Assembly: GCA_002269645.1 (NCBI GenBank) | Contig: NIVC01001526.1 | Span: 62,001 to 126,000, forward strand | Direction: 5' to 3' | Source of the DNA: Macrostomum lignano | Lineage: Eukaryota | Length of the DNA: 64,000 nt | Shown here: piece after piece, positions 1 to 37,500 of the stretch | Position numbering within the stretch: the first letter of the stretch is position 1 | Layout of the letters: every line of letters begins with the position of its first letter | Notes under the pieces: generated by a model | What the model saw: only the letters and a program-made list of their open reading frames with translations | The model's database searches: none | Told to the model about the DNA's origin: nothing | Program-made: the position numbers and the translations under genes

Positions 1-120
1 AAGGAGTGCATGTTGAAGGAACAGAAGGATTGCACGTTGAAGGAACAGAAGGAGTGCATGTTGAAGGAGCAGAAGGATTGCACGTTGAAGGAACAGAAGG
101 AGTGCATGTTGAAGGAACAG
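1..120 (+). repeat. 24-bp coding tandem repeat (HVEGTEG[L/V])n
   Basis: Unit gaaggagtgcatgttgaaggaaca, about 5 copies visible, in frame with the YR ORF. Confidence 0.9.
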
Positions 121-2876
121 TAGTGCTAGAAGTCCCAGATAATCCAGCTCAGTCTGGCCAGCAACCACAGGATTTCGGCCATCAAGGCCTTAAGACCATC
201 AGAAGTTGGCCTCAATGTCATGCGCGCAATGTAGACTTAGACGCTGATACACCTGACAACATCTGGCCACGGGTAGAGTGTCCTGTTAAGAGTGATAAAG
301 TTGTCCTGCAACCAAGGCTGTCGGAAGAATCCAACGAAATAATTCAGATTGTTATTGACGACGAAGACGACGATGATTTGGAAAAGTCTACTAAAAGTGA
401 AAAGACTCCTTTTCGTGCACTGGAGAATCTTGGCGTTAGCATTTCCAGTAACAAACCTCGAAAAGGTATTCAATATGTTTGCCATCTTGATAGCAGTCAT
501 TTGATTACGGAGTCAAGGATTAAGCAGCACTTTGATCGAAATCATCAGAACTACGAGTTATACGGCTCCTTTGACGAAATCAAAAAAGAATTAATCAAAT
601 TCAACAATGAACGTTTCGGTTTACCGTCTAAAGAGTCAACGACCAAAAAGTCCACCTCGGCAGAAAGAGCAGGCAATGACTATTGGTGCCATCTAGACCC
701 AACTCATCTAATTAAACAGTCGAGGTTTGCCGACCACTTTAAACATTTTCATAAAGACAAACTTCAGTCCGAAGGACGCAAGAGCTTGATAATGGCGACC
801 AAAAAATTTACCAAAGATCGTCTCAATGCTGAAAGAAAGAAAGAGACAAGCAAAATGCATCTGACGAAAGGTGTAGAGAATCCAAAAGATGACGCTGATG
901 CAGCCGAAGAAAACTGCAGTTCTGATATAATTTGTCCGAAGTGTGACCTTCCTCAAAAAAGCAGTCTTTTCAGCCATTTAACCCACTGGCACGAAATGAG
1001 CGTAGAAGAGGCAAAGGAATCCATTAAAGACATCAAGACGGCGAATGTATCCAACTATGTCCTTCAAAGTTGGAAGTCAAAATCTAGCACCTCTCATTGC
1101 TCTCAATATACGCCAGATGACGAAAAAGACAATTTAGTTCCATCGTTAGAAGATTTCGAAGATTTCCTGAAAAATTTTCCCGGAGGAAGGCTTGCCCAAT
1201 CGACGCGGGCACAAGCACGCAGAGCTATTTCAAAAATTATGTCTATTACCGGAGTTTCTAGTCTGGTCGATATTATTCGCGAGAAGCACCGTTCTAGGAT
1301 TAACGAGTTTTTAACTAGCAAGTCTCAATCTTGCTCCGATGGAACGAAGACATATGTTGAAGGTCTAAAACGTTTTGGAGTGTACCTGAAGAGCTCGTTT
1401 TCTAAATTCGTTTCAACGGCTCAGTTGACCAAAGATCTCGAATCTTTCCTTTTCATCTGTAAGGGTTATGGAAAGTCCCGATTACAGGACAAGAAACTTG
1501 CCGAGTCACGTCGTCGATATGCGCTGGACAAAAGTAGACTGACCGTAAGCGAGCTCAAAACTGTCCTTGATGTTGTCGATTTCTTCTTCGCAGCCGCCGA
1601 ATCTAAGCCTACAGGATCTCGCGAACAAATGATATTTATTGGTCTGTATTTTCTTTTTGGCAAAGGAAACTTTCACCGCGCCGATGCAGTCTCGAATGCC
1701 AAAATGGAACAATTTTTCGAATGGAAAGGCCAACTGGATATTGATCCGCAAGCAATGTTTGAAATCCTAAATCATAAGACGGACAAATTAGGTGTTATTC
1801 AAGTTTCAGTCATCGATATTAAGGAAATTTTATTGGAGTATGGAAATAATCGTGTTGCAAACGGAGCGGTCGCAGCTGATTACTTTTTTGATTATGGTCA
1901 GCTTCAGAACATTGGACTGCATTCTTTTTCAACCTATTTGCGCAAATCTCGAGAAACGTTTCCGATCCTAAATGATTTGAAAACAGTCAACGTCCGTACT
2001 TATCGTCACTTTTTTACGACTAAAGGTGGTGAACTTCTAAGCGAAGAAGAGCAGGATCTTATGCACAGGAGAATGTTGCACTCAAAAGCAACAGCTAAGC
2101 AAAGCTATTTAGCAACGACTGTCTTAATTGCTAAAAAAGGGGAGGAGGTCGCCCGGAACCTGTATGATCTAGCGATTTCGCAGCAAGCGAGCGACGCGCA
2201 GCAGGCAAAGGAGGCGAAGAAGGCGAAGAAACGAGGTCCTGGCGGTCAGCAGGCGAGCGACGCGCAGCAGGCAAAGGAGGCGAAGAAGGCGAAGAAACGA
2301 GGTCCTGGCGGTCAGCAGGCGAGCGACGCGCAGCAGGCAAAGGAGGCGAAGAAGGCGAAGAAACGAGGTCCTGGCGGTCAGCAGGCGAAGAAACGAGGTC
2401 CTGGCGGTCAGCAGTCAAGCGATGCGCAGCAGGCGAAGAAACGAGGTCCTGGCGGTCAGCAGTCAAGCGATGCGCAGCAGGCGAAGAAACGAGGTCCTGG
2501 CAGTCAGCAGTCGAGCGATGCGCAGCAGGCGAAGAAACGAGGTCCTGGCAGTCAGCAGTCGAGCGATGCGCAGCAGGCGAAGAAGGCGAAGAAACGAGGT
2601 CCTGGTGGTCAGCAGTCGAGCGATGCGCAGCAGGCGAAGAAGGCGAAGAAACGAGGTCCTGGTGGTCAGCAGTCGAGCGATGCGCAGCAGGCGAAGAAGA
2701 CGAAGAAACGAGGTCCTGGCGGTCAGCAGTCGAGCGATGCGCAGCAGGCGAGCGTCGCGCAGCAGGCGAGCGACGCGCAGCAGTCCGAATCTGTAAATCA
2801 GCACAGTCCTAAGCACAACTCGCAAAGAAAATCTAAAACTATAGCTTTTAGTCTATTATCTGAACTAGCGGGATAG
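6..2876 (+). CDS. Intronless zinc-finger plus tyrosine recombinase (Crypton-like YR) protein, 5'-truncated by the window edge
   Basis: 956-aa ORF, open at the window start (the 'start' is a GTG inside a repeat). Three C/H clusters: CHLDSSHL..HFDRNH, CHLDPTHL..HFKHFH, CPKC..HLTHWH. YR catalytic order R-K-(H)xxR-H-Y seen as FHRADAVSN, NHKTD, RTYRHFFTT, MLHSKATAKQSY. Confidence 0.75.
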   Translation: MHVEGTEGLHVEGTEGVHVEGAEGLHVEGTEGVHVEGTVVLEVPDNPAQSGQQPQDFGHQGLKTIRSWPQCHARNVDLDADTPDNIWPRVECPVKSDKVVLQPRLSEESNEIIQIVIDDEDDDDLEKSTKSEKTPFRALENLGVSISSNKPRKGIQYVCHLDSSHLITESRIKQHFDRNHQNYELYGSFDEIKKELIKFNNERFGLPSKESTTKKSTSAERAGNDYWCHLDPTHLIKQSRFADHFKHFHKDKLQSEGRKSLIMATKKFTKDRLNAERKKETSKMHLTKGVENPKDDADAAEENCSSDIICPKCDLPQKSSLFSHLTHWHEMSVEEAKESIKDIKTANVSNYVLQSWKSKSSTSHCSQYTPDDEKDNLVPSLEDFEDFLKNFPGGRLAQSTRAQARRAISKIMSITGVSSLVDIIREKHRSRINEFLTSKSQSCSDGTKTYVEGLKRFGVYLKSSFSKFVSTAQLTKDLESFLFICKGYGKSRLQDKKLAESRRRYALDKSRLTVSELKTVLDVVDFFFAAAESKPTGSREQMIFIGLYFLFGKGNFHRADAVSNAKMEQFFEWKGQLDIDPQAMFEILNHKTDKLGVIQVSVIDIKEILLEYGNNRVANGAVAADYFFDYGQLQNIGLHSFSTYLRKSRETFPILNDLKTVNVRTYRHFFTTKGGELLSEEEQDLMHRRMLHSKATAKQSYLATTVLIAKKGEEVARNLYDLAISQQASDAQQAKEAKKAKKRGPGGQQASDAQQAKEAKKAKKRGPGGQQASDAQQAKEAKKAKKRGPGGQQAKKRGPGGQQSSDAQQAKKRGPGGQQSSDAQQAKKRGPGSQQSSDAQQAKKRGPGSQQSSDAQQAKKAKKRGPGGQQSSDAQQAKKAKKRGPGGQQSSDAQQAKKTKKRGPGGQQSSDAQQASVAQQASDAQQSESVNQHSPKHNSQRKSKTIAFSLLSELAG
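2182..2785 (+). repeat. Coding tandem repeat at the YR C-terminus (QQ[A/S]SDAQQAK..KKRGPG[G/S])n
   Basis: Variable-length units, all multiples of 3, so the ORF stays open. Confidence 0.9.
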
Positions 2877-2964
2877 TAATAAATCTGAGGAAATCATACT
2901 AAATACTATGAATCACGCGACTAGAGTTCAAGCAGAATCTTGCTCAAGTCACATAGGGTTGACT

Positions 2965-4252
2965 TGCCACCCTTTAAATGCTTAAAACTTGTCATTTTTG
3001 TCGCTAATTTTAAGCGCTGATCCGGGTCTATTGTATTACATGTGTCGCTACCTTTGAATGCTTAACCATTGTCATTTTTGTCCCTAATTTTAAGCGCTGA
3101 TCCGGGTCTATTGTATTACATGTGTCGCTACCTTTGAATGCTTAACCATTGTCATTTTTGTCGCTAATTTTAAGCGTTGATCCGGGTCTATTGTATTATA
3201 TGTGTCGCTACCTTTGAATGCTTAACCATTGTCATTTTTGTCCCTAATTTTAAGCGTTGATCCGGGTCTATTGTATTATATGTGTCGCTACCTTTGAATG
3301 CTTAACCATTGTCATTTTTGTCCCTAATTTTAAGCGCTGATCCGGGTCTATTGTATTATATGTGTCGCTACCTTTGAATGCTTAACCATTGTCATTTTTG
3401 TCGCTAATTTTAAGCGTTGATCCGGGTCTATTGTATTATATGTGTCGCTACCTTTGAATGCTTAACCATTGTCATTTTTGTCCCTAATTTTAAGCGCTGA
3501 TCCGGGTCTATTGTATTATATGTGTCGCTACCTTTGAATGCTTAACCATTGTCATTTTTGTCGCTAATTTTAAGCGTTGATCCGGGTCTATTGTATTATA
3601 TGTGTCGCTACCTTTGAATGCTTAACCATTGTCATTTTTGTCCCTAATTTTAAGCGCTGATCCGGGTCTATTGTATTACATGTGTCGCTACCTTTGAATG
3701 CTTAACCATTGTCATTTTTGTCGCTAATTTTAAGCGTTGATCCGGGTCTATTGTATTATATGTGTCGCTACCTTTGAATGCTTAACCATTGTCATTTTTG
3801 TCCCTAATTTTAAGCGTTGATCCGGGTCTATTGTATTATATGTGTCGCTACCTTTGAATGCTTAACCATTGTCATTTTTGTCCCTAATTTTAAGCGCTGA
3901 TCCGGGTCTATTGTATTATATGTGTCGCTACCTTTGAATGCTTAACCATTGTCATTTTTGTCGCTAATTTTAAGCGTTGATCCGGGTCTATTGTATTATA
4001 TGTGTCGCTACCTTTGAATGCTTAACCATTGTCATTTTTGTCCCTAATTTTAAGCGCTGATCCGGGTCTATTGTATTATATGTGTCGCTACCTTTGAATG
4101 CTTAACCATTGTCATTTTTGTCGCTAATTTTAAGCGTTGATCCGGGTCTATTGTATTATATGTGTCGCTACCTTTGAATGCTTAACCATTGTCATTTTTG
4201 TCCCTAATTTTAAGCGCTGATCCGGGTCTATTGTATTACATGTGTCGCTACA
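2965..4252. repeat. 80-bp satellite, about 16 copies
   Basis: gtcatttttg recurs at 2991, 3071, 3151 and onward; tcgcta/tcccta variants. Confidence 0.95.
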
Positions 4253-4894
4253 TTTATATTACGTTTTAATAATTCGAAAGTCTCAGGCAAACTTCCTGTG
4301 TCGCCAATTCCTATTATAATTCAAGATTCAAATTATTAATATTTGAAACAGAACAAAATTTTTGTGGAAATTTAAATTTTTAGCTAAATAATAAAATATT
4401 TGAAAGATCCCTGCACGGCATATATATATTTGCGCTTTAACGTTTATACCGACTTAAGGAAGACTTAAGGAAAAAGTTGAAATATTACTGAACCAAAAAT
4501 TTATGAGTTAAATAATAGTATTTAAACAAAGTTTGGGATACTAAAAAGTGAGGTTCGAAAAATAGTTTCTAACAGTATAAAATATTTATATTGTATAATT
4601 TAAAAATATCTTAAATATACGCTATCCACTTTATCTATAATGTTACTAATTAATTACTCGAATTTTCTTTCCTGCATGCTAATTGCATCCATGATGTCTT
4701 TCTAATAGTCTTTAAATTTAAATGCTCTACTAGCCTCAATTAATCACTTAAAAATGTGACGATTGCACTTGCACATCTAACACGACTGACAATTGCACAT
4801 AGTGCCAAAAATGACATTATTTACTCTTGCATTTCTTGCATTAACTTCTTAGTAGATCCAAAAAGCACTTTACTAGCTACTACTTGCATTGCAC

Positions 4895-6635
4895 TAAAAT
4901 CTGACGGTTGCACATTGTACCAAAAATGACAGAAGATCTAATCCTCTATCTACACTACATGTTGTTGTTCCTTGGCTATTTCAAATGTAAGTTCTGATTT
5001 CCGTTGGTTTTACTTGCAGTAGCGTCAACTACTTTTCTGGTAGTGTTCGCTGTGTAAAAATGACTGCTGCACAAGCTGTAAAATATGACGATTGCACATT
5101 GTGCCAAAAATGACAGAAGACAGTATTTCATTTACACTATATTATAGTTCCTCCCTTTTTATAGGCTATTTCAAATGTAAGTTCTGATGTCCGTTGGTTT
5201 TACTTGCAGTAGCGTCAACTACTTTTCTGGTAGTGCTCGCTGTGTAAAAATGACTGCTGCACAAGCTGTAAAATATGACGATTGCACATTGTGCCAAAAA
5301 TGACAGAAGACAGTATTTCATTTACACTATATTATAGTTCCTCCTTTTTATAGGCTATTTCAAATGTAAGTTCTGATGTCCGTTGGTTTTACTTGCAGTA
5401 GCGTCAACTACTTTTCTGGTAGTGCTCGCTGTGTAAAAATGACTGCTGCACAAGCTGTAAAATATGACGATTGCACATTGTGCCAAAAATGACAGAAGAC
5501 AGTATTTCATTTACACTATATTATAGTTCCTCCTTTTTATAGGCTATTTCAAATGTAAGTTCTGATGTCCGTTGGTTTTACTTGCAGTAGCGTTTAACTA
5601 CTTTTCTGGTAGTGCTCGCTGTGTAAAAATGACTGCTGCACAAGCTGTAAAATATGACTATTGCACATTGTGCCAAATATGACAGAAGACAGTATTTCAT
5701 TTACACTATATTATAGTTCCTCCTTTTTATAGGCTATTTCAAATGTAAGTTCTGATGTCCGTTGGTTTTACTTGCAGTAGCGTTTAACTACTTTTCTGGT
5801 AGTGCTCGCTGTGTAAACATGACTGCTGCACAAGCTGTAAAATATGACGATTGCACATTGTGCCAAAAATGACAGAAGACAGTATTTCATTTACACTATA
5901 TTATAGTTCCTCCTTTTTATAGGCTATTTCAAATGTAAGTTCTGATGTCCGTTGGTTTTACTTGCAGTAGCGTCAACTACTTTTCTGGTAGTGCTCGCTG
6001 TGTAAAAATGACTGCTGCACAAGCTGTAAAATATGACTATTGCACATTGTGCCAAAAATGACAGAAGACAGTATTTCATTTACACTATATTATAGTTCCT
6101 CCTTTTTATAGGCTATTTCAAATGTAAGTTCTGATGTCCGTTGGTTTTACTTGCAGTAGCGTTTAACTACTTTTCTGGTAGTGCTCGCTGTGTAAACATG
6201 ACTGCTGCACAAGCTGTAAAATATGACTATTGCACATTGTGCCAAAAATGACAGAAGACAGTATTTCATTTACACTATATTATAGTTCCTCCTTTTTATA
6301 GGCTATTTCAAATGTAAGTTCTGATGTCCGTTGGTTTTACTTGCAGTAGCGTCAACTACTTTTCTGGTAGTGCTCGCTGTGTAAAAATGACTGCTGCACA
6401 AGCTGTAAAATATGACTATTGCACATTGTGCCAAAAATGACAGAAGACAGTATTTCATTTACACTATATTATAGTTCCTCCTTTTTATAGGCTATTTCAA
6501 ATGTAAGTTCTGATGTCCGTTGGTTTTACTTGCAGTAGCGTTTAACTACTTTTCTGGTAGTGCTCGCTGTGTAAAAAATGACTGCTGCACAAGCTGTAAA
6601 ATATGACTATTGCACATTGTGCCAAAAATGACAGA
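4895..6635. repeat. 189-191-bp satellite, about 9 copies
   Basis: ataggctattt recurs at 5161, 5350, 5539 and onward; gtcaac/gtttaac variants. Confidence 0.95.
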
Positions 6636-7217
6636 CGGTGTATTACGTATTATAGACTTACTTTGGAATTTTCATTTTAGATTATAAAATGATTTAGTAT
6701 ATTGTGATGTATATGAATAAACCATCTATGTTTGCAACATACAGCTATTTGCATGTTCAACAAAATTTAAAATTTAAATGCTGCAACTCACTTTCTACTT
6801 TCCCTTCCACACAATCTACTTAATTGATTTTTAGAGTTTCTTTAGTAGCTATACTAATTCTATTTTAGACTAAATTAATATGAATATAAGATCTCTGTTT
6901 TCTTATTACATGGTAAAGTTTATTGTATAAATTGCTAAGTATTTACAGTCGTTAATTTTAGTCTAACAGTATTTATCAGCACTGCACAAATGTGCAGTTG
7001 TGCGCCAATACAGGCTTAAAGGATCGTACACTACGGAATACTGTATATACAGTATATATTGTCAGAGAGGCTGGAAGTTTTACAAAAATCGAGCAATTTG
7101 GAAGTGTCATGATTTGTCATTTTTGCAAAGTCTGTGTCATGGCCAAAACTTTGCGCGTTTCCATTGGGATACACAGCGGTCATTTTTTGTTAGATGTGCC
7201 ATGTCATTTTTTTTAAT

Positions 7218-8393
7218 TCTCGTCATAAACGTGCCCCACGCTGACCTCTGCCTCAAGGACTTGAGAGACAGCGGCGGGCTCCACGTCCTATCTGACGGCG
7301 AACCCAGCACTCTCAACCTCTTTCAGCGCTACAAGGTCACCATCCCCTCTAGGGATGCTGCCAATGACCACTGGAATTTCCAGGAGGTCCATTGCTACAC
7401 GGACGGATCCATCAAAGACGGTCGCGCCGGCTTTGGGGTCTGCATCATCATCAACGGCCGCGTAATTGCCACGCATGCCCAGCACACTGGTAGACTCTCC
7501 ACAGTCTTCCAGAACGAAGTCCTTGCCATCAGCTCTTGCGCTGCAGAGCTGAACGCCTAGTTTACGAGAGGAAAGACTATTGTCATCCACTCCGACAGCC
7601 AAGCGGCCTTACAGGCCCTTTGCCACACCACAACGAACTCCCGGACAGTCGCCGACTGCGCCCGGCAGCTCAACCTCCTGGCCAGAAGCAATACTGTCAG
7701 GCTGAAGTGGATCCCAGGGCACGCAGGGTTTCCGGGGAACGAGCTGGCAGACACCCTCGCCAAGAGGGGCGGCTCTGGCTCTTTCTTCGGCCCTGCCCCC
7801 CTGGTCCCTATGCCCTTGACAGTCATCAATCGTCAGATCGACGACTGGGCTGACTCCCTCCACAGGGACAGATGGGCGGGCACCCAAAACTGCCGGCAAT
7901 CTCGTGCCGCGGTTCCTTGCCCGTCTCACAGGCTCAGAAGCATCCTTCTGAACCAGAATCGGAAGGATATTCGAGCCCTTTTCATGACCCTTACCGGCCA
8001 TGGCTACCTCGCCAGGCACTGCTTCCTCCGAGGCGACCTCGAGAGCGAAATTTGCCCCTTTTGCGAGTGCGACAATGAAGATGCTCAGCACTTTGTCTGT
8101 CACTGCCCTTTCTTTAACAGAGACCGGCTACGCTACCTCGGGCCGAACCCGTCCATTGACGAGGTCTGCCAGCCCGACAGCATCCCACGGCTCATCCAGT
8201 TCCTTCGGGCGACTAGACGAGCCAGTTTCTTCCCAACGGAAGATCACGCTGCAGGACGGACCGGCGGACCACCCTGACCGGCCCCACGCCTCTGCCTGTC
8301 TGCGGGCCTTCAGGGGCTAGCGGAATGGGCGACCCTCGCCTCCCCGCTGTGTCTATGGACCACCCTGCAGCTAAGTCAAGTAAGTAAGTCAAG
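7218..8393 (+). mobile_element. 5'-truncated non-LTR retrotransposon carrying RNase H (I/Loa/R1-type LINE), one in-frame stop
   Basis: YTDGS..E..SDSQAAL..WIPGHAG..GNELADTLAK RNase H motifs; TAG at 7558-7560; C-terminal CPFC..EDAQHFVCHCP knuckle; 3' tail ctaagtcaagtaagtaagtcaag. Confidence 0.9.
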
Positions 8394-9884
8394 GTCTTCT
8401 CGAAGCCATGCCTTTTGAAACACTTTGGGAATGTTGCGGATTAATATAAAGCACTTCTGTCTGTGACAGAAAGTTCTAAACTTACAGAAGACACAAGCAT
8501 ACATCTATGTATAAAATCTTTCACTCTGGTCTTTCCGACTGGAATGGGAATGCAGGGTCTGAGCAGAAAGAATGTGTCTATTTCGGCCCCTCCGACTAAA
8601 ACGGAGAGTGACAAATATCTTCACCGTCTTGAAGAGGTTAATGTAGATTTGTATTGAAGCCGAAAAGCAAGAAAATGCAAATAGAAGCAGACGGTTCTTA
8701 CAATTGGTTCGAATCCGCATTTCGATTACATGTACTAATAAAGTATGCAGAATGAGGTCTATTTGTGCCATTTCCTGGATCCAATAGGCATAAATGTAGA
8801 TTTTTTATGATTCTGTGTTGTTCTGTCAAGTTGAGTCTGTTCTGCTATTCACGACGCTGTTGCCCATTGTAGTTTCGCATAGCGCCAAGTGAGGATTCAC
8901 CACAGACAGCCCGATGGCTTTGCACACATTTGCCTTTTGCCTCTTGGCAATAGATATTTGCCAGTCAGCGGACTGCCGTGCGTTAACACGCATAGGCTGA
9001 CTAAATTAAGTACAGTCAACTGTTAAACAGGAAAAACTAAAGTCATTTTTAAGCAGCTGAAACGCGCTGCAAAATGAAACTTTGAAATAATGACGCGTTT
9101 ATATTTATTTTGTTTTTTTTTTAAATGTTGATTAATAGCCGGCAGAAGCTACAAAAGGGAAACAAATATACATACACATATATATATAATATATATAGCA
9201 TGTTTCTGAAGGCAACAAATGCTTTTGTTCGCATTTTGACAACAGAAGGTTAAAATTGTGCGCAGAACTATACTACAAATAGGTAATACTCATAGTAGTA
9301 CAGTATAACTCAACCCGAAAATATTTTTTTAGAAATCACAAGATTTTTTACTTGTAAAACAGCATGCTAGAGTTACGTCACCGTGCGGTTTGTGCATAAT
9401 AATTTGAATTAAAATTTGCTAATGAGATCGCATTAATCAGATGTTCGGTAAAAGAAACGCAGCTCGATTTCATGCCTCCATTCTATTTGGTGAGATCAGG
9501 ATTATCACAGAATATCAAACGGGCCTTGAACAACTTAAGTCAAATACTAATAAATCGATAGTAAAAACAGCAGTAAAAATATAAAAGTCCAACAACAGCG
9601 CGCGTTAGTTAATCAAAAGCAATCTTAAAGTAAGATTGGCAATAGACTGAAAACTAAAGACTATAGGAGTAGATTTTAGCTATGGCGAAATTTGGAATAA
9701 AAAAAACAATAAAATTTGCAAAGATGGACAGCAAAGTAAGGATCAAGTGATTCACGTGGATTTAGCCACAAATTCTGTATTCTATATAGATGGGCCACTC
9801 CAGCATTTTAAGGTTAAGACCATAGACTGTAGCTTCGGCTGCTCTCAAGCATTAGCAGCAGCACCGAGTGTCTGTGGCCCTACA

Positions 9885-10728: not shown

Positions 10729-22302
<11,574 letters not shown>

Positions 22303-27361: not shown

Positions 27362-30156
27362 ATGAAGCGACCCATTGAAGACGAAGAATCTAGCTGTGCT
27401 AGTGCTGAGCCTACAGAATCCAAGCAGGCCAAGCTGGCCTCAGACTCGAACAATGATGCTGCAGTTGCAGCCACTGGCAATACTAGAAACTGTACTATCA
27501 ATAGGCGGCGTGGAGATGTGAAGAAAGCCATTTTAATGCTGATGTATTCCGGATCTGGATACTATGGTATGCAGCGCAATACTGGCTTTGATACTATTGA
27601 GGGCGCACTGTTTGATAGCTTGCTGGCTGGCGGTCACATTACCGAGGAGGAGTATTTATCGCCTGGTAAACTACAATTCCAACGGGCATCTAAGACCGAC
27701 AAAGGCGTGTCCGCGCTTGCTCAGGTTTGTTTGTTTTAGGCACAGATATCAGAATAACTGGAATTGTCACTCGCACTTCAAGTTGTGAAAAAATCAAAGC
27801 GCCTACTCTCTCTTTTTCAGTATATCTGTGCAGTGTCACTTAAATTCATGTGCAGCTAAAATTTTCTTCCTCTTGTTTTCGTTCTCAGGAGCATACTGCA
27901 TATGAGGTTAAGAATAAACAGCAAGCATATGATATAACTCGATGTACAAAAGTAAACGCAAGACGGACAAAACTCAGCCTAGGGGACAAGCCCTATCTAG
28001 CTTAGCCAATGAGAGAGCAGTAAGGAGAGAGGTCCAAGTTAGACGGACAAAACTCAGCCTAGGGGGCAGGCCCGATCTAGCTTAGCCAATGAGAGAGCAG
28101 TAAGGAGAGAGGTCCAAGTCAGACGGACAAAACTCAGCCTAGGGGGCAGGCCCAATCTAGCTTAGCCAATGAGAGAACAGTAAGAAGAGAGGTCAAAGTC
28201 AGACGGACAAAACTCAGCCTAGGGGACAAGCCCTATCTAGCTTAGCCAATGAGAGAGCAGTAAGGAGAGAGGTCCAAGTCAGACGGACAAAACTCAGCCT
28301 AGGGGGCAGGCCCAATCTAGCTCAGCCAATGAGAGAGCTGTAAGGAGAGAGGTCCAAGTCAGACGGACAAAACTCAGCCTAGGGGGCAGGCCCAATCTAG
28401 CTCAGCCAATGAGAGAGCAGTAAGAAGAGAGGTCAAAGTCAGACGGACAAAACTCAGCCTAGGGGACAAGCCCTATCTAGCTTAGCCAATGAGAGAGCAG
28501 TAAGGAGAGAGGTCCAAGTCAGACGGACAAAACTCAGCCTAGGGGGCAGGCCCAATCTAGCTCAGCCAATGAGTGAGCAGTAAGGAGAGAGGGTCAAAGT
28601 CAGACGGACAAAACTCAGCCTAGGGGGCAGGCCCAATCTAGCTCAGCCAATGAGTGAGCAGTAAGAAGAGAGGTCCAAGTCAGACGGACAAAACTCAGCC
28701 TAGGGGGCAGGCCCAATCTAGCTTAGCCAATGAGAGAACAGTAAGAAGAGAGGTCAAAGTCAGACGGACAAAACTCAGCCTAGGGGACAAGCCCTATCTA
28801 GCTTAGCCAATGAGAGAGCAGTAAGGAGAGAGGTCCAAGTCAGACGGACAAAACTCAGCCTAGGGGGGCAGGCCCAATCTAGCTCAGCCAATGAGTGAGC
28901 AGTAAGGAGAGAGGGTCAAAGTCAGACGGACAAAACTCAGCCTAGGGGGGCAGGCCCAATCTAGCTCAGCCAATGAGTGAGCAGTAAGAAGAGAGGTCCA
29001 AGTCAGACGGACAAAACTCAGCCTAGGGGGCAGGCCCAATCTAGCTCAGCCAATGAGTGAGCAGTAAGGAGAGAGGTCCAAGTCAGACTGAAAAAACTCA
29101 GTCTAGGGGGCAGGCCCGATCTACCTTAGCCAATGAGAGAGCAGTAAGGAGAGAGGTCAAAGTCAGACGCAAGCGAGCAAGAGGAAAACCCAACTGTGTA
29201 TCGGCCTGGCGCGCCACCCATTCTCTTGCTCGCCATGCATACGCACTTTTTCGCTACAAAAAAAGTATATTAGCGCATTGTTTGCAATTTACATCTTTAG
29301 TTATTCTACTAGTAATATGTGGTTTTGTATTGTTTACGAATTTGAGTACCAATTTTCGCGACTTATTATATATTCCTTTGCCTTATTTGCTCTAATCGTT
29401 TACCTGCTTATTAAAATCTGTCCCGACTCCCAGGTGGTGTCTATGAAGCTCAACTTAAGCGACGCAGACTCCTTAAAAGCCGACGTGAACAGTCGCCTGC
29501 CAACGCAAATTCGCCTATTAGACGTATTTCGAACCACAAAGAATTTCAATTGCAAGGCTAGAGTTAATCATAGGGAATACGCGTACATCTGCCCAAGCTA
29601 TGCATTCGCCTCAAAGAGCCGGCCAATCGACATAACTTATCGCATCGACTCGACACAACTGGAACTGCTGCGCTCCTGTCTGTCGCGCTACAAAGGCACA
29701 AAGAACTATTATAACTTCACGTCCGGTAGGCCCCCCGGAGACGCCTCCTGCAATCGGTACATTATCGATTTCACTGTTGGGGAGCCGTTCGAGTATCGCG
29801 ACGCCGAATTTGTTGAACTGAGAGTTCGCGGCCAGAGCTTTATGCTGCATCAGATACGGAAAATGGTCGGCCTAGCCATTGCTATTGTTAAAGGCTACTG
29901 CCGGCTGGAAGCTATGGATGCCGTTTTCACCTATAAGTATGCTGCTATGTGTATCTTAAACCTGTCTGTCTGTGTCTGTCTGTCTCTCGCTGTCTGTCTG
30001 TCTGTCTGCCTGCCTCAGCCTTAGGTCTATCTGCTGTCTGTCTGTCTGTCTGTCTGTGTATCTGTCTGTGTGTATGTCTGTCTGCCTGTCTTTCTGCCTG
30101 CCTGTCTGTCTGCCTGTCTGTCTGTCTGTCTGTCTGTATGTCTGTCTGTGTCTGTA

Positions 30157-34525: not shown

Positions 34526-37500
34526 ATGTCGCTAAGTCCATTGCTACTCTGGCTATTATCAGTCTGTAATTTACTGTACGGCCTGCTCAGGATTTGGTTC
34601 GGTCAATCGGATATTGTCTCTGTAGTGCGGCGCGTTCTAAGCGCCCTAGGCACCACCTGTCTGTTTCTGTACGGACAGTGGCACCATTGGTGGCGCCAGC
34701 AGCCGCCGCACCCGGATCTCCAGGTGGACCAACCGGTGTGGCAGAACCGGCCAGCTCAGTCTGGCGCCTGCGTTGCTACACCTCGATTTGGTTCTAATAA
34801 TAGATTGACTGCTACAAATGCTACTGCTAGTACTAATCAGGTGTTGGCATGGCAACCGGCGCCAGCTGATACGGGCAGCGTCATTGGCAACCTGTGCATG
34901 AGGCTAGTTGGTCGGCAACAGCAGCAGCAACAACATGATCAGCATGAACTGCTGTGGCATCGAGACAGACCAATAGGCTTTGTTAATCTTGGCAGCAGCA
35001 ATTCCTGCTTTATGAATGCCTGCCTGCAAATTCTGTTTAGCAGCGAACGATTCCTCGCCGCTCTCCGTTCGTGCGGACGGAATCGCTCGGCCTCGCCAAG
35101 TCACGAAGCCGTGCTGGACGCTTTGCAAACTCTGGCTGACCGGTGAGGGGCCTTGGTGAAATTTTAGAGTTCGCACCTGTTGCGTTTTGTAGATTTCATG
35201 ATGATGCGATCCCAGATACTGTCTTAGCCTTAGTGATTTAAATTCTAAATTCCTGAAGATCTCGTGTTGTAATCTCCGTGATTCTAATGCTACACCCTGA
35301 GAGATCCCAGCATTACACCCTGAGAGATCCCAGCATTACACCCTGAGAAATCTCAACATTACAACCTGAGAGATCCCAGCATTACACCCTGAGAGATCTC
35401 AACATTACACCCTGAGATATCCTGACATTACACCCTGAGAGATCTCAACATTACACCCTGAGATATCCCGACTTTACACCCTGAGAGATCTCAACATTAC
35501 ACCCTGAGAGATCCCAGCATTACACCCTGAGAGATCTCAACATTACACACTGAGAGATCCCAACATTACACCCTGAGAGATCCCAGCATTACACCCTGAG
35601 AGATCCCAACATTACACTCTGGGAGATCCAGCATGACACCCTTGGAGATCAGCATTACACCCTGAGAGATCTCAACATTACACTCTGGGAGATCCCAGCA
35701 TGACACCCGGAGCTTACAAGAGTAGCCAATTATCTCTCCGCTATATTTTTCACCGCTTGCCCAGGCGGCATCGACTCCAGCAGCAGAGTCGCATCGGCGG
35801 CGGTGGCGGTGGCACGGACAACAACCGCCTGGACCTGCTAGATACTCAACAGCTTCGCCGTTCTCTAGCCCAGATTTGCCCCCTGATTCAGCCGCTGGGC
35901 CTACCACAACAGCAGCAGGACGCGGCGGAGTTCTTTGATCTATTATTAGACGTTCTGTTCGAAGCCAGCAGGAGCGGCAGTAGCGGCAGCGGTTATGGAC
36001 TGTCAGACGCCGCCCTGTGGACGTCGTCGTTAGAGCGGCTAAGTCGAGCCTATCCTGATCTGGATCTGATGCGCTCCGCCGATTCCCGGTTGAGATTGTT
36101 GGACTCCGCTAAGCTGGAGGTTACCTACGCGCATCAGCCGGCTTCCATTCAGGCCGGATTAGAGAATCGAGCCTGCTCAGCTTCCCTGCTCAGACTGGCT
36201 AATCTGCACTGGTTGCACAGGCGCTTAGGCGAATGTCGGAGTCCCTTGGCGGCTCTGATTGAAGGTCAAATGATTGATTTGACGCTGTGCGAATCTTGCC
36301 ATCGATTGAGAGCCGCTTGCAACGAATTGCGCGCTCTGCTGGTGCCGCTGCCGATGGCCACGCAGGTCGGGGGAATAGATGTTGAGGTGAGTACCGGCCT
36401 GGCACTATGAATCTCAGATCATTTGTCCTGAATCTTCAATTCTTTATCCTGAATCTCCAATCATTTGTACTGAATCTTTAATTCTTTATCCTAAATCTCA
36501 AATCATTTGTACTGAATCTCCAATCATTTATCCTAAATCTCAAATCATTTGTACTGAATCTCCAATCATTTGTACTGAATCTCCAATCATTTGTCCTGAA
36601 TCTTCAATGCTTTATCCTAAATCTCCAATCATTTGTACTGAATCTCCAATCATTTATGCTGAATCTCCAATCATTTATCCTGAATCTCCAATCATTTATC
36701 CTGAATCTCCAATCATTTATCCTGAATCTCCAATCCCTTATCCTGAATCTCCAATCATTTATCCTGAATCTCCAATATCATTTATGCTGAATCTCCAATC
36801 ATTTATGCTGAATCTCCAATCATTTATGCTGAATCTCCAATCATTTGTACTGAATCTCCAATCATTTATGCTAAATCTCCAATCATTTGTACTGAATCTC
36901 CAATCATCATTTATGCTAAATCTCCAATCATTTGTACTGAATCTCCAATCATTTATGCTAAATCTCCAATCATTTGTACTGAATCTCCAATCATCATTTA
37001 TGCTAAATCTCCAATCATTTGTACTGAATCTCCAATCATTTATCCTGAATCTCCAATCATTTGTACTGAATCTCAAATCATTTGTACTGAATCTTCAATG
37101 CTTTATCCTAAATCTCAAATCATTTGTACTGAATCTCCAATCATTTGTACTGAATCTCCAATCATTTGTACTGAATCTCCAATCATTTGTCCTGAATCTT
37201 CAATGCTTTATCCTAAATCTCAAATCATTTGTCCTGAATCTTCAATGCTTTATCCTAAATCTCAAATCATTTGTACTGAATCTCCAATCATTTATCCTAA
37301 ATCTCCAATCATTTGTACTGAATCTCCAATCATTTGTCCTGAATCTTCAATGCTTTATCCTAAATCTCAAATCATTTGTCCTGAATCTTCAATGCTTTAT
37401 CCTAAATCTCCAATCATTTGTACTGAATCTCCAATCATTTATGCTGAATCTCCAATCATTTATCCTGAATCTCCAATCATTTATCCTGAATCTCCAAACA

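Follow-up and report, generated by a model that had tools for sequence, protein, structure and literature searches.

Cryptons, whose groups F, S, A and I were described by Kojima and Jurka (2011; PMC3212892), are among the known systems that come closest to the element considered here. The movement of eukaryotic transposons that carry a tyrosine recombinase (YR) only has so far been mostly inferred: active Cryptons, represented by CryptonF-1_cRei, were first seen in an alga (PMC9977147), and a circular intermediate of Starships was shown in a 2026 preprint (10.64898/2026.09.21.753150). This research work deals with a 64,000-nucleotide stretch of the Macrostomum lignano genome (assembly GCA_002269645.1, contig NIVC01001526.1, hereafter C1526, positions 62,001 to 126,000, forward strand), referred to below as the window and numbered from its first base, and with the recombinase-bearing element that occupies its left end. 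This element is almost certainly a DNA transposon driven by its own YR; it is of the Crypton type and not a virus, and its recombinase belongs to a YR group that includes nimavirus integrases. Its ends, as read from the sequence, are defined and att-like, a feature not reported for animal Cryptons in the available text of PMC3212892.

The element, its copies and its empty sites

A 10.5-kb element (C1526:58733-69237; 10,505 bp) carries the recombinase open reading frame (ORF) as its sole gene. The left part of this element lies upstream of the window, as the original prediction, drawn from the window alone, had supposed: it starts 3268 nucleotides (3.27 kb) upstream and ends at window position 7237. 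The part inside the window (1..7237, + strand) is shared with a second full copy (C359:190871-181488), the similarity between the two stopping at one and the same base at either end and giving way to unrelated flanks. This second copy is identical across the 360-residue query, and only 5 substitutions separate the two full copies over the roughly 7.5 kb that lie outside their tandem arrays. Duplication of a host locus was ruled out as the origin of the two full copies, their flanks being unrelated over the roughly 100 kb examined.

On the left, the element reads CCCC, TATA and then a 14-bp arm, GGCACGTTTATGAC (C1526:58741-58754); on the right, an inverted copy of this arm (7222..7235, - strand) is followed by CC. 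The CCCC at the right end (7234..7237, + strand) is a direct repeat, of which the empty site has only one copy. In the 764-Mb genome, 17 occurrences of the arm were counted, versus 3 for the control, and 16 of them make eight inward-facing pairs; the remaining one is a lone right end on C1310, where the 19 kb examined contain no left end. Beside the two full copies, the pairs at C1368, C464, C854, C1410, C1170 and C4195 delimit gene-less derivatives of 1.1-7.9 kb that are 85-95% identical to the full element. The derivative at C4195:32513-40386 holds a 3.6-kb insert rich in simple repeats and without a clear gene. Within the element the arm is found at the two ends only, with no internal junction copy, and on this ground a DIRS-like internal junction copy was ruled out.

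The bounded copies of 9.4-10.5 kb hold one long ORF and tandem arrays, and neither reverse transcriptase (RT) or RNase H, nor a DDE transposase, nor a second gene was found inside them. One array comprises 16 copies of an 80-bp unit (2971..4255) and the other 8.8 copies of a 190-bp unit (4974..6635), and the units of both, in opposite orientations, carry AAATGAC, a motif iterated at the element ends. Within 300 bp of the termini it is repeated 5 times at one end and 3 times at the other, a level reached by none of 2000 shuffles, and such iterated end motifs are candidate zinc-finger sites.

The original prediction that no RT or RNase H lies in frame or linked downstream holds for the element itself, but farther downstream, at 7561-8277, the sequence does contain an RNase H frame (Pfam RNase_H, 38 bits, above the cut-off). 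It is part of the insertion target, a 5'-truncated fragment of a long interspersed nuclear element (LINE) outside the element (7238..8391, + strand), the first 30 or so bases of which lie to the left of the element. The 61-bp target duplication of this LINE is preserved on both sides (left copy C1526:58640-58700; right copy 8392..8452, + strand). The corresponding site is read through, with one CCCC, by 110 uninterrupted exact LINE copies (control 1); the downstream RNase H therefore belongs to the target, and it was ruled out as an element gene, lying beyond the boundary. The target fragment is 99.1-99.2% identical to four of the six sister copies examined, and 97.7% and 94-95% identical to the others. 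Insertion took place into a LINE copy about 1% from its sisters, and the insertion is therefore younger than that copy. A second LINE 3' fragment is seen in the window near 12743-13228.

Empty sites with a single core were found for all six insertions tested (C1526, C359, C1368, C464, C854 and C1410). The insertion at C359 has an empty locus at C4139, 99.87% identical over 1.5 kb on each side, and a second one in the homeologue C528 (92%). The left flank of the C1368 insertion is 99.8% identical to its empty site, C581. Seven paralogues represent the site at C464 (two exact, three with one change, and two not readable with the probe), four of seven paralogues are exact at C854, and a 1144-base skip was seen at C1410, where the flanks are repetitive, in 4/4 runs. 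All eight targets are C-rich spots in LINE and other repeats, and none of the eight flanks is a microsatellite. The genome search for copies and boundaries that had been proposed thus returned a dispersed element, with sharp ends and with presence or absence between near-identical loci, and not the single-copy syntenic host gene devoid of element boundaries against which the original prediction had warned. The few substitutions between the full copies and the closeness of the target LINE to its sisters indicate, at the sequence level, a young element.

The recombinase, its expression and its sister families

The uninterrupted ORF noticed at the outset is real: a single stop-free frame spans window positions 3-2876 (+ strand; 957 codons), is open at the window start and reaches 1143 codons from stop to stop with its upstream extension. 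The predicted protein, of 1110 residues, would start about 457 nucleotides upstream of the window (C1526:61544), at a spliced-leader junction. The description of this ORF as AT-rich was not borne out, the GC content of its core (42%) being close to the window mean (43%) and that of its repetitive tail reaching 60%; yet the core does lie below five host coding stretches (48-61%), and GC at third codon positions is 0.40, versus 0.56 and 0.60 in two host coding stretches.

Low-complexity repeats are present at both ends of the ORF. It opens with a 24-bp coding repeat (HVEGTEG units), the end of which occupies 1..120 (+ strand, as for all domains below), and continues with three metal-binding clusters. 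These had been predicted to be C2H2-like, which is accurate for the third only: it is a canonical C2H2 zinc finger (930..992), present in 8/8 close relatives checked and modelled as a hairpin plus helix, whereas the first two (474..545 and 681..752) are putative fingers of CHHH type (C-x5-H-x9-H-x3-H). One CHHH finger is present in six of the eight close relatives checked, the query not being counted, and the first matches Pfam zf-U11-48K weakly. Next come a helical core-binding (SAM-like) domain, indicated by fold-model matches (1134..1530, limits approximate), a catalytic domain recognised by its predicted fold and conserved residues (1531..2180), and a basic low-complexity tail of AKKRGPGGQQ units (2181..2783), the number of which is not equal in the two full copies.

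The catalytic motifs HRADAV, HKT, RTYRH and MLHS..Y were confirmed by position in the order predicted, with R at nucleotide 1677, K at 1776, R at 2004, H at 2079 and Y at 2106. These five residues are conserved in the relatives (40/44, 42/42, 43/43, 39/39 and 39/39 rows with a residue, respectively), but the histidine of the HxxR motif is replaced in the query by Arg (nucleotide 1995) and in most relatives by T, S or N, and no His occurs in the 43 rows with a residue at this column. An ordered and conserved series of R, K, R, H/W and Y, as in the tyrosine recombinase superfamily, can thus be read from the alignment.

Assignment to this superfamily was obtained through relatives and models. The query alone matched no YR in Pfam or among PDB sequences, and a word-index protein search with it retained none of 5193 candidates (lengths 322-1028); with A3, three matches among 7998 were obtained. 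A profile built from four sequences of the same genome reached 69 representatives at E <= 0.001 among 1.84 billion, and a pairwise check of eight relatives gave 25-33% identity to the query. Of the 43 matches scanned, four, all of them distant, passed the Pfam Phage_integrase cut-off. XerA was matched by sequence at E 2.8e-14 from a profile containing distant integrase-like rows, and profiles limited to close relatives found no YR by sequence in PDB. An AlphaFold model based on a 51-row alignment (predicted local distance difference test, pLDDT, 88.8) matched XerA in Foldseek at E 3.8e-4, and XerH (Z 12.7, root-mean-square deviation (rmsd) 5.1, 290 residues aligned) and IntI4 (Z 12.2, rmsd 5.2, 272 aligned) in VIA. 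Because that alignment held integrase-like rows, a control model was built from 15 close relatives only (pLDDT 88.2). XerA and XerD ranked first in Foldseek, at E > 0.001, and in a comparison with 48,161 chains the top 25 rows were all of YR or topoisomerase IB fold (best Z 10.9, rmsd 13.5, 250 aligned). Residues 1-130 of the control model resembled the core-binding domains of integrases (3nrw, Z 7.0, rmsd 2.9, 93 aligned; 2oxo, Z 6.6, rmsd 2.7, 88 aligned). The structure prediction suggested for checking the integrase fold did find it: two independent models place a core-binding and a catalytic domain in the predicted fold of the tyrosine recombinase superfamily.

The ORF is probably transcribed. 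The two probable RNA runs, which come from two studies, both yield contigs that extend across the ORF as far as its 5' end and no further, whereas two other runs continue beyond it; the RNA nature of the former is a guess, none of the element-bearing runs listed in the run index being recorded as RNA. At that point the probable-RNA contigs carry 15-16 foreign bases that are those of the published M. lignano spliced leader, a 35-nucleotide sequence ending in ATG (PMC8629364; PMC5173321). The ATG of the leader is in frame with the ORF and gives the 1110-residue protein in the C1526 copy; annotated products begin one codon after it. The messenger RNA may thus be trans-spliced, the AUG of the leader starting the protein. 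At the splice junction, the assembled sequence is CATG in both full copies, in contrast to a CCAG acceptor in four derivatives. DNA contigs break at this junction, which makes the assembled acceptor of the full copies provisional; the end of the leader may have been written into the assembly there (L065:6875-6877, L024:9541-9546). A run X16 contig of a derivative-type copy has 255 foreign bases joined at the same splice acceptor (L065:6874), which may represent the splicing of a host exon into that non-autonomous element. Youth, an intact frame and probable transcription make it likely that the element is still active.

The genome contains a second intact YR family, family B (750 residues, 27% identity), at five loci (C73:807670-816092, C217, C33, C903 and C740/C2731), the proteins of which are annotated only as hypothetical. 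Its layout is similar to that of the query element: the C73 element measures 8.4 kb, with a 451-bp internal array, and the family has six left ends, five right ends, four copies with an intact frame and inverted arms of its own. The left spacer CCATAC occurs in 4/4 copies of the main subfamily, one with a single change (CCATCC). Both intact families (A and B) have their own iterated end motif, enriched over shuffles; that of family B is found six times on the left (reached by 0/2000 shuffles) and twice on the right (37/2000). Further YR families are present in broken form. In one of them, found at three loci whose flanks are shared (C1377, C247 and C3130), the recombinase is closely followed by a PWWP domain frame (L006:2077-2550; Pfam PWWP, 42 bits, above the cut-off), which may be a chromatin-reading fusion. 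Another divergent family, with the same finger and motif layout, is broken or spliced at at least eight places (C2334, C1205, C1950, C38, C46, C4188, C349 and C321).

Junction anatomy, strand order and rival explanations

If the two ends of the element are joined, CCTATA comes to lie as a 6-bp spacer between the 14-bp arm and its inverted copy, an arrangement that would resemble loxP or dif. YR sites typically have arms of 11-13 bp and spacers of 6-8 bp (PMC3212892). The spacers of the integrated copies are not distributed evenly. In seven of the eight copies, the left spacer, CCTATA, belongs to the element and the right one consists of 6 bp of the target (CCACGC, 7236..7241, + strand, in the window copy), with two or three leading bases in common. 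The eighth, C464, has the target's 6 bp on both sides, sharing one base with CCTATA. The reciprocal product, with CCTATA on the right, was seen in none of the eight. Random segregation of mismatches after exchange of both strands would make reciprocal products equally common, so that seven same-orientation spacers out of seven give p = 0.016 (two-sided binomial). A direct repeat matching the target measures 3-5 bp in seven copies (4-5 bp in six of the eight) and 8 bp in C464. In C464 the target sequence meets the left arm exactly at the spacer's right edge, and this suggests cuts staggered by 6 bp; the copy duplicates exactly the 6 bp between the arm edges, and the register of the staggered cut is therefore fixed.

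We favour, with moderate confidence, an ordered and strand-biased exchange. The recombinase would bind the arms, its zinc fingers possibly sitting on the iterated AAATGAC motif, and join the ends into a circle with an arm, CCTATA and arm junction; the element would thus excise as a circle and recombine into short C-rich targets in a strand-ordered way. Upon integration, the top strands would be exchanged at the left edge of the 6-bp spacer, where one to three matching bases (C, CC or CCT) may suffice. At the second exchange, at the right edge, mismatch would be tolerated, or the exchange may often be replaced by replication or repair. The top-strand sequence would normally be the one fixed, and CCTATA would therefore travel with the left end while the target's 6 bp end up on the right.

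The main rival of strand-biased exchange keeps the same element and enzyme and supposes plain crossover, as in Cryptons and Starships: both exchanges would occur inside the CCCC microhomology, TATA would be mere left-end sequence, and neither heteroduplex nor strand bias would be involved. This is the published model for those elements (PMC3212892, PMC9977147, 10.64898/2026.09.21.753150); it explains the 4-5 bp repeat of six copies equally well, and the spacer pattern of seven copies with no extra assumption. We nevertheless consider it rather unlikely, as C1368 shares only CCT with its target, the left spacer of C464 is replaced by exactly the target's 6 bp, and the arms are symmetric about a 6-bp spacer, within the spacing of 6-8 bp typical of YR sites (PMC3212892).

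It is scarcely probable that the copies owe their spread to a different agent, be it segmental duplication, a transposase of the host or of the DDE type, or an error of assembly, with the YR-like ORF as a passenger or a catalytically dead DNA-binding protein. There are indeed only two full copies, the HxxR histidine is missing, enzyme activity is predicted only, and in the control-model search YRs score no higher than the topoisomerase IB fold. Such an agent would, however, have to account for eight unrelated flanks with base-precise ends, for asymmetric arms and the lack of a uniform target duplication, unlike DDE elements, for catalytic residues conserved across divergent families that each have their own arms, and for a core-binding domain of integrase type; moreover, contigs of public runs cover the element and cross its junctions.

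Viral kinship, by contrast, concerns the enzyme only. One distant match falls into the same 90% cluster as an endogenous nimavirus protein named "tyrosine recombinase"; this match is reached by the close-relative profile at E 5e-7, has 22-27% pairwise identity over 115-147 residues only, and shares with the query the HKT lysine motif, the lack of the HxxR His and an H-x6-8-Y tail. A catalytic-domain tree of 40 of 73 rows, unrooted and used only to show separate clades, sets a flatworm-type clade (support 0.99) apart from a nimavirus clade (1.0), above a weak backbone that does not resolve their relationship. No capsid, packaging or viral core genes were found within the boundaries, the 9.4-kb copy consisting of the YR ORF and repeats only. 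Of the original wording, "Crypton-like or virus-derived", the first term fits, and the second stands only as a distant kinship of the enzyme with nimavirus integrases, no other gene supporting it. Least probable of all is a reading in which the integrase comes from a nimavirus-like or polinton-like DNA virus and the element itself is a non-autonomous remnant, or a satellite, of that virus: the nimavirus match, the C2H2, SAM-like and YR domains found in both (PMC10871703) and the viral YR-like proteins that lead a BFVD search speak for it, but the copies hold no second gene and the two clades are separate.

Several observations weigh against the transposon and the strand order that we favour. 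The query and the close-relative profiles reach no YR by sequence in Pfam or PDB, the XerA match rests on a profile holding distant integrase-like rows, and the HxxR histidine is absent. The eight insertions are a small number, with C1170 and C4195 lying outside the empty-site check. The runs taken as RNA are only guessed to be so, with a single contig each at the leader junction, and the full copies have CATG at this junction versus the CCAG acceptor of four derivatives. In family B, the right junction at C73 is imprecise: in comparison with the empty allele C23, it holds some 17-19 additional bases that repeat pieces of the element's own end, which suggests, from the sequence, host repair at the second junction; the left spacer at C740/C2731 differs, the comparison partner there being a 93% homeologue. 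Finally, no circle junction was found among the joints listed for the contigs of four DNA-type runs, and contigs drop rare forms; 36 junction reads of a Starship required about 8,000-fold raw coverage (10.64898/2026.09.21.753150). Taken as a whole, a still-active group of animal DNA transposons, akin to nimavirus integrases, with lox- or dif-like joined ends and strand-biased exchange on 1-3 bp of homology as in CTnDOT and SE elements, is a reading that we put forward tentatively, as a little less than an even prospect.

From a practical point of view, this is an intact, very young and probably transcribed animal element, the ends of which are known to the base and for which eight insertions, their empty alleles and one unusual, informative junction are available; cut positions, homology rule and strand order are therefore directly testable. 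It also links small animal transposons to integrases used by large crustacean viruses. If the proposed reading is true, the element would provide an integrase of low specificity that acts as a single protein on defined att ends, in a flatworm amenable to transgenesis, and hence a candidate one-protein integration system.

Elsewhere in the window, host exons were recognised for a 6-phosphofructo-2-kinase (16674-17255, - strand), a tRNA pseudouridine synthase (29137-30024, + strand) and, with a match below the cut-off, a ubiquitin hydrolase (35637-36410, + strand).

Comparison with known systems

No published description of this family was found in the literature searched, Repbase Reports and subscription journals being outside its scope. 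Among Repbase groups, CryptonV would be the likeliest place for a YR of this type, and Repbase entries of that group may already cover it. Compared by description only, CryptonV (Kapitonov and Jurka, 2012, as cited in PMC8869645 and PMC5753468) is likewise an animal DNA transposon with a YR only, but some of its families target microsatellites, unlike any of the eight insertions studied here.

With Cryptons in general (PMC3212892, PMC9977147), the element shares a YR as its only gene and sole enzyme, the lack of RT, a short direct repeat matching the target, clean empty sites and non-autonomous derivatives. It differs from them in the N-terminal zinc fingers of its recombinase and in its ends: Cryptons are described as lacking terminal inverted repeats, and animal Cryptons have no terminal repeats of any kind reported in the available text (PMC3212892), whereas 14-bp inverted arms are present in 8/8 two-ended copies. 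With regard to individual groups, no DUF3504 match, as in CryptonA and CryptonI, was obtained for the query, nor for 43 relatives at E 0.01, and GCR1_C, looked for with regard to CryptonF, was not found, the C-terminus being a low-complexity repeat without a Pfam match. CryptonS offers a resemblance only, the family B core on the other strand, TATGG, being the terminus of most CryptonS (PMC3212892). With respect to DIRS and Ngaro elements, neither RT or RNase H nor an internal complementary region or split repeats were found inside the element.

The telomere- and 28S-targeting tyrosine recombinases of nimaviruses (PMC10871703) have the same C2H2, SAM-like and YR architecture, but they belong to genomes hundreds of kb long, and their targets are telomere repeats or ribosomal DNA. 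Starships (PMC10104507, 10.64898/2026.09.21.753150) are also driven by a YR and combine a short direct repeat and a terminal inverted repeat with footprint-free empty sites; by contrast, the present element has neither a DUF3435 match nor a cargo ORF, measures 10 kb and inhabits an animal. In the proposed way of working, a parallel is offered by two kinds of bacterial element, CTnDOT, with its integrase IntDOT, and SE elements. Kinship with them is not implied, the element lacking Xis, a second recombinase and conjugation genes, but IntDOT exchanges top strands first, with a need for 2 bp of homology, and bottom strands without homology (PMC2034462), while in SE elements the 6 bp always come to lie at the same end (PMC9345347): these systems and the proposed mechanism would thus have in common a short homology at the edge of the overlap, followed by a non-homologous remainder.

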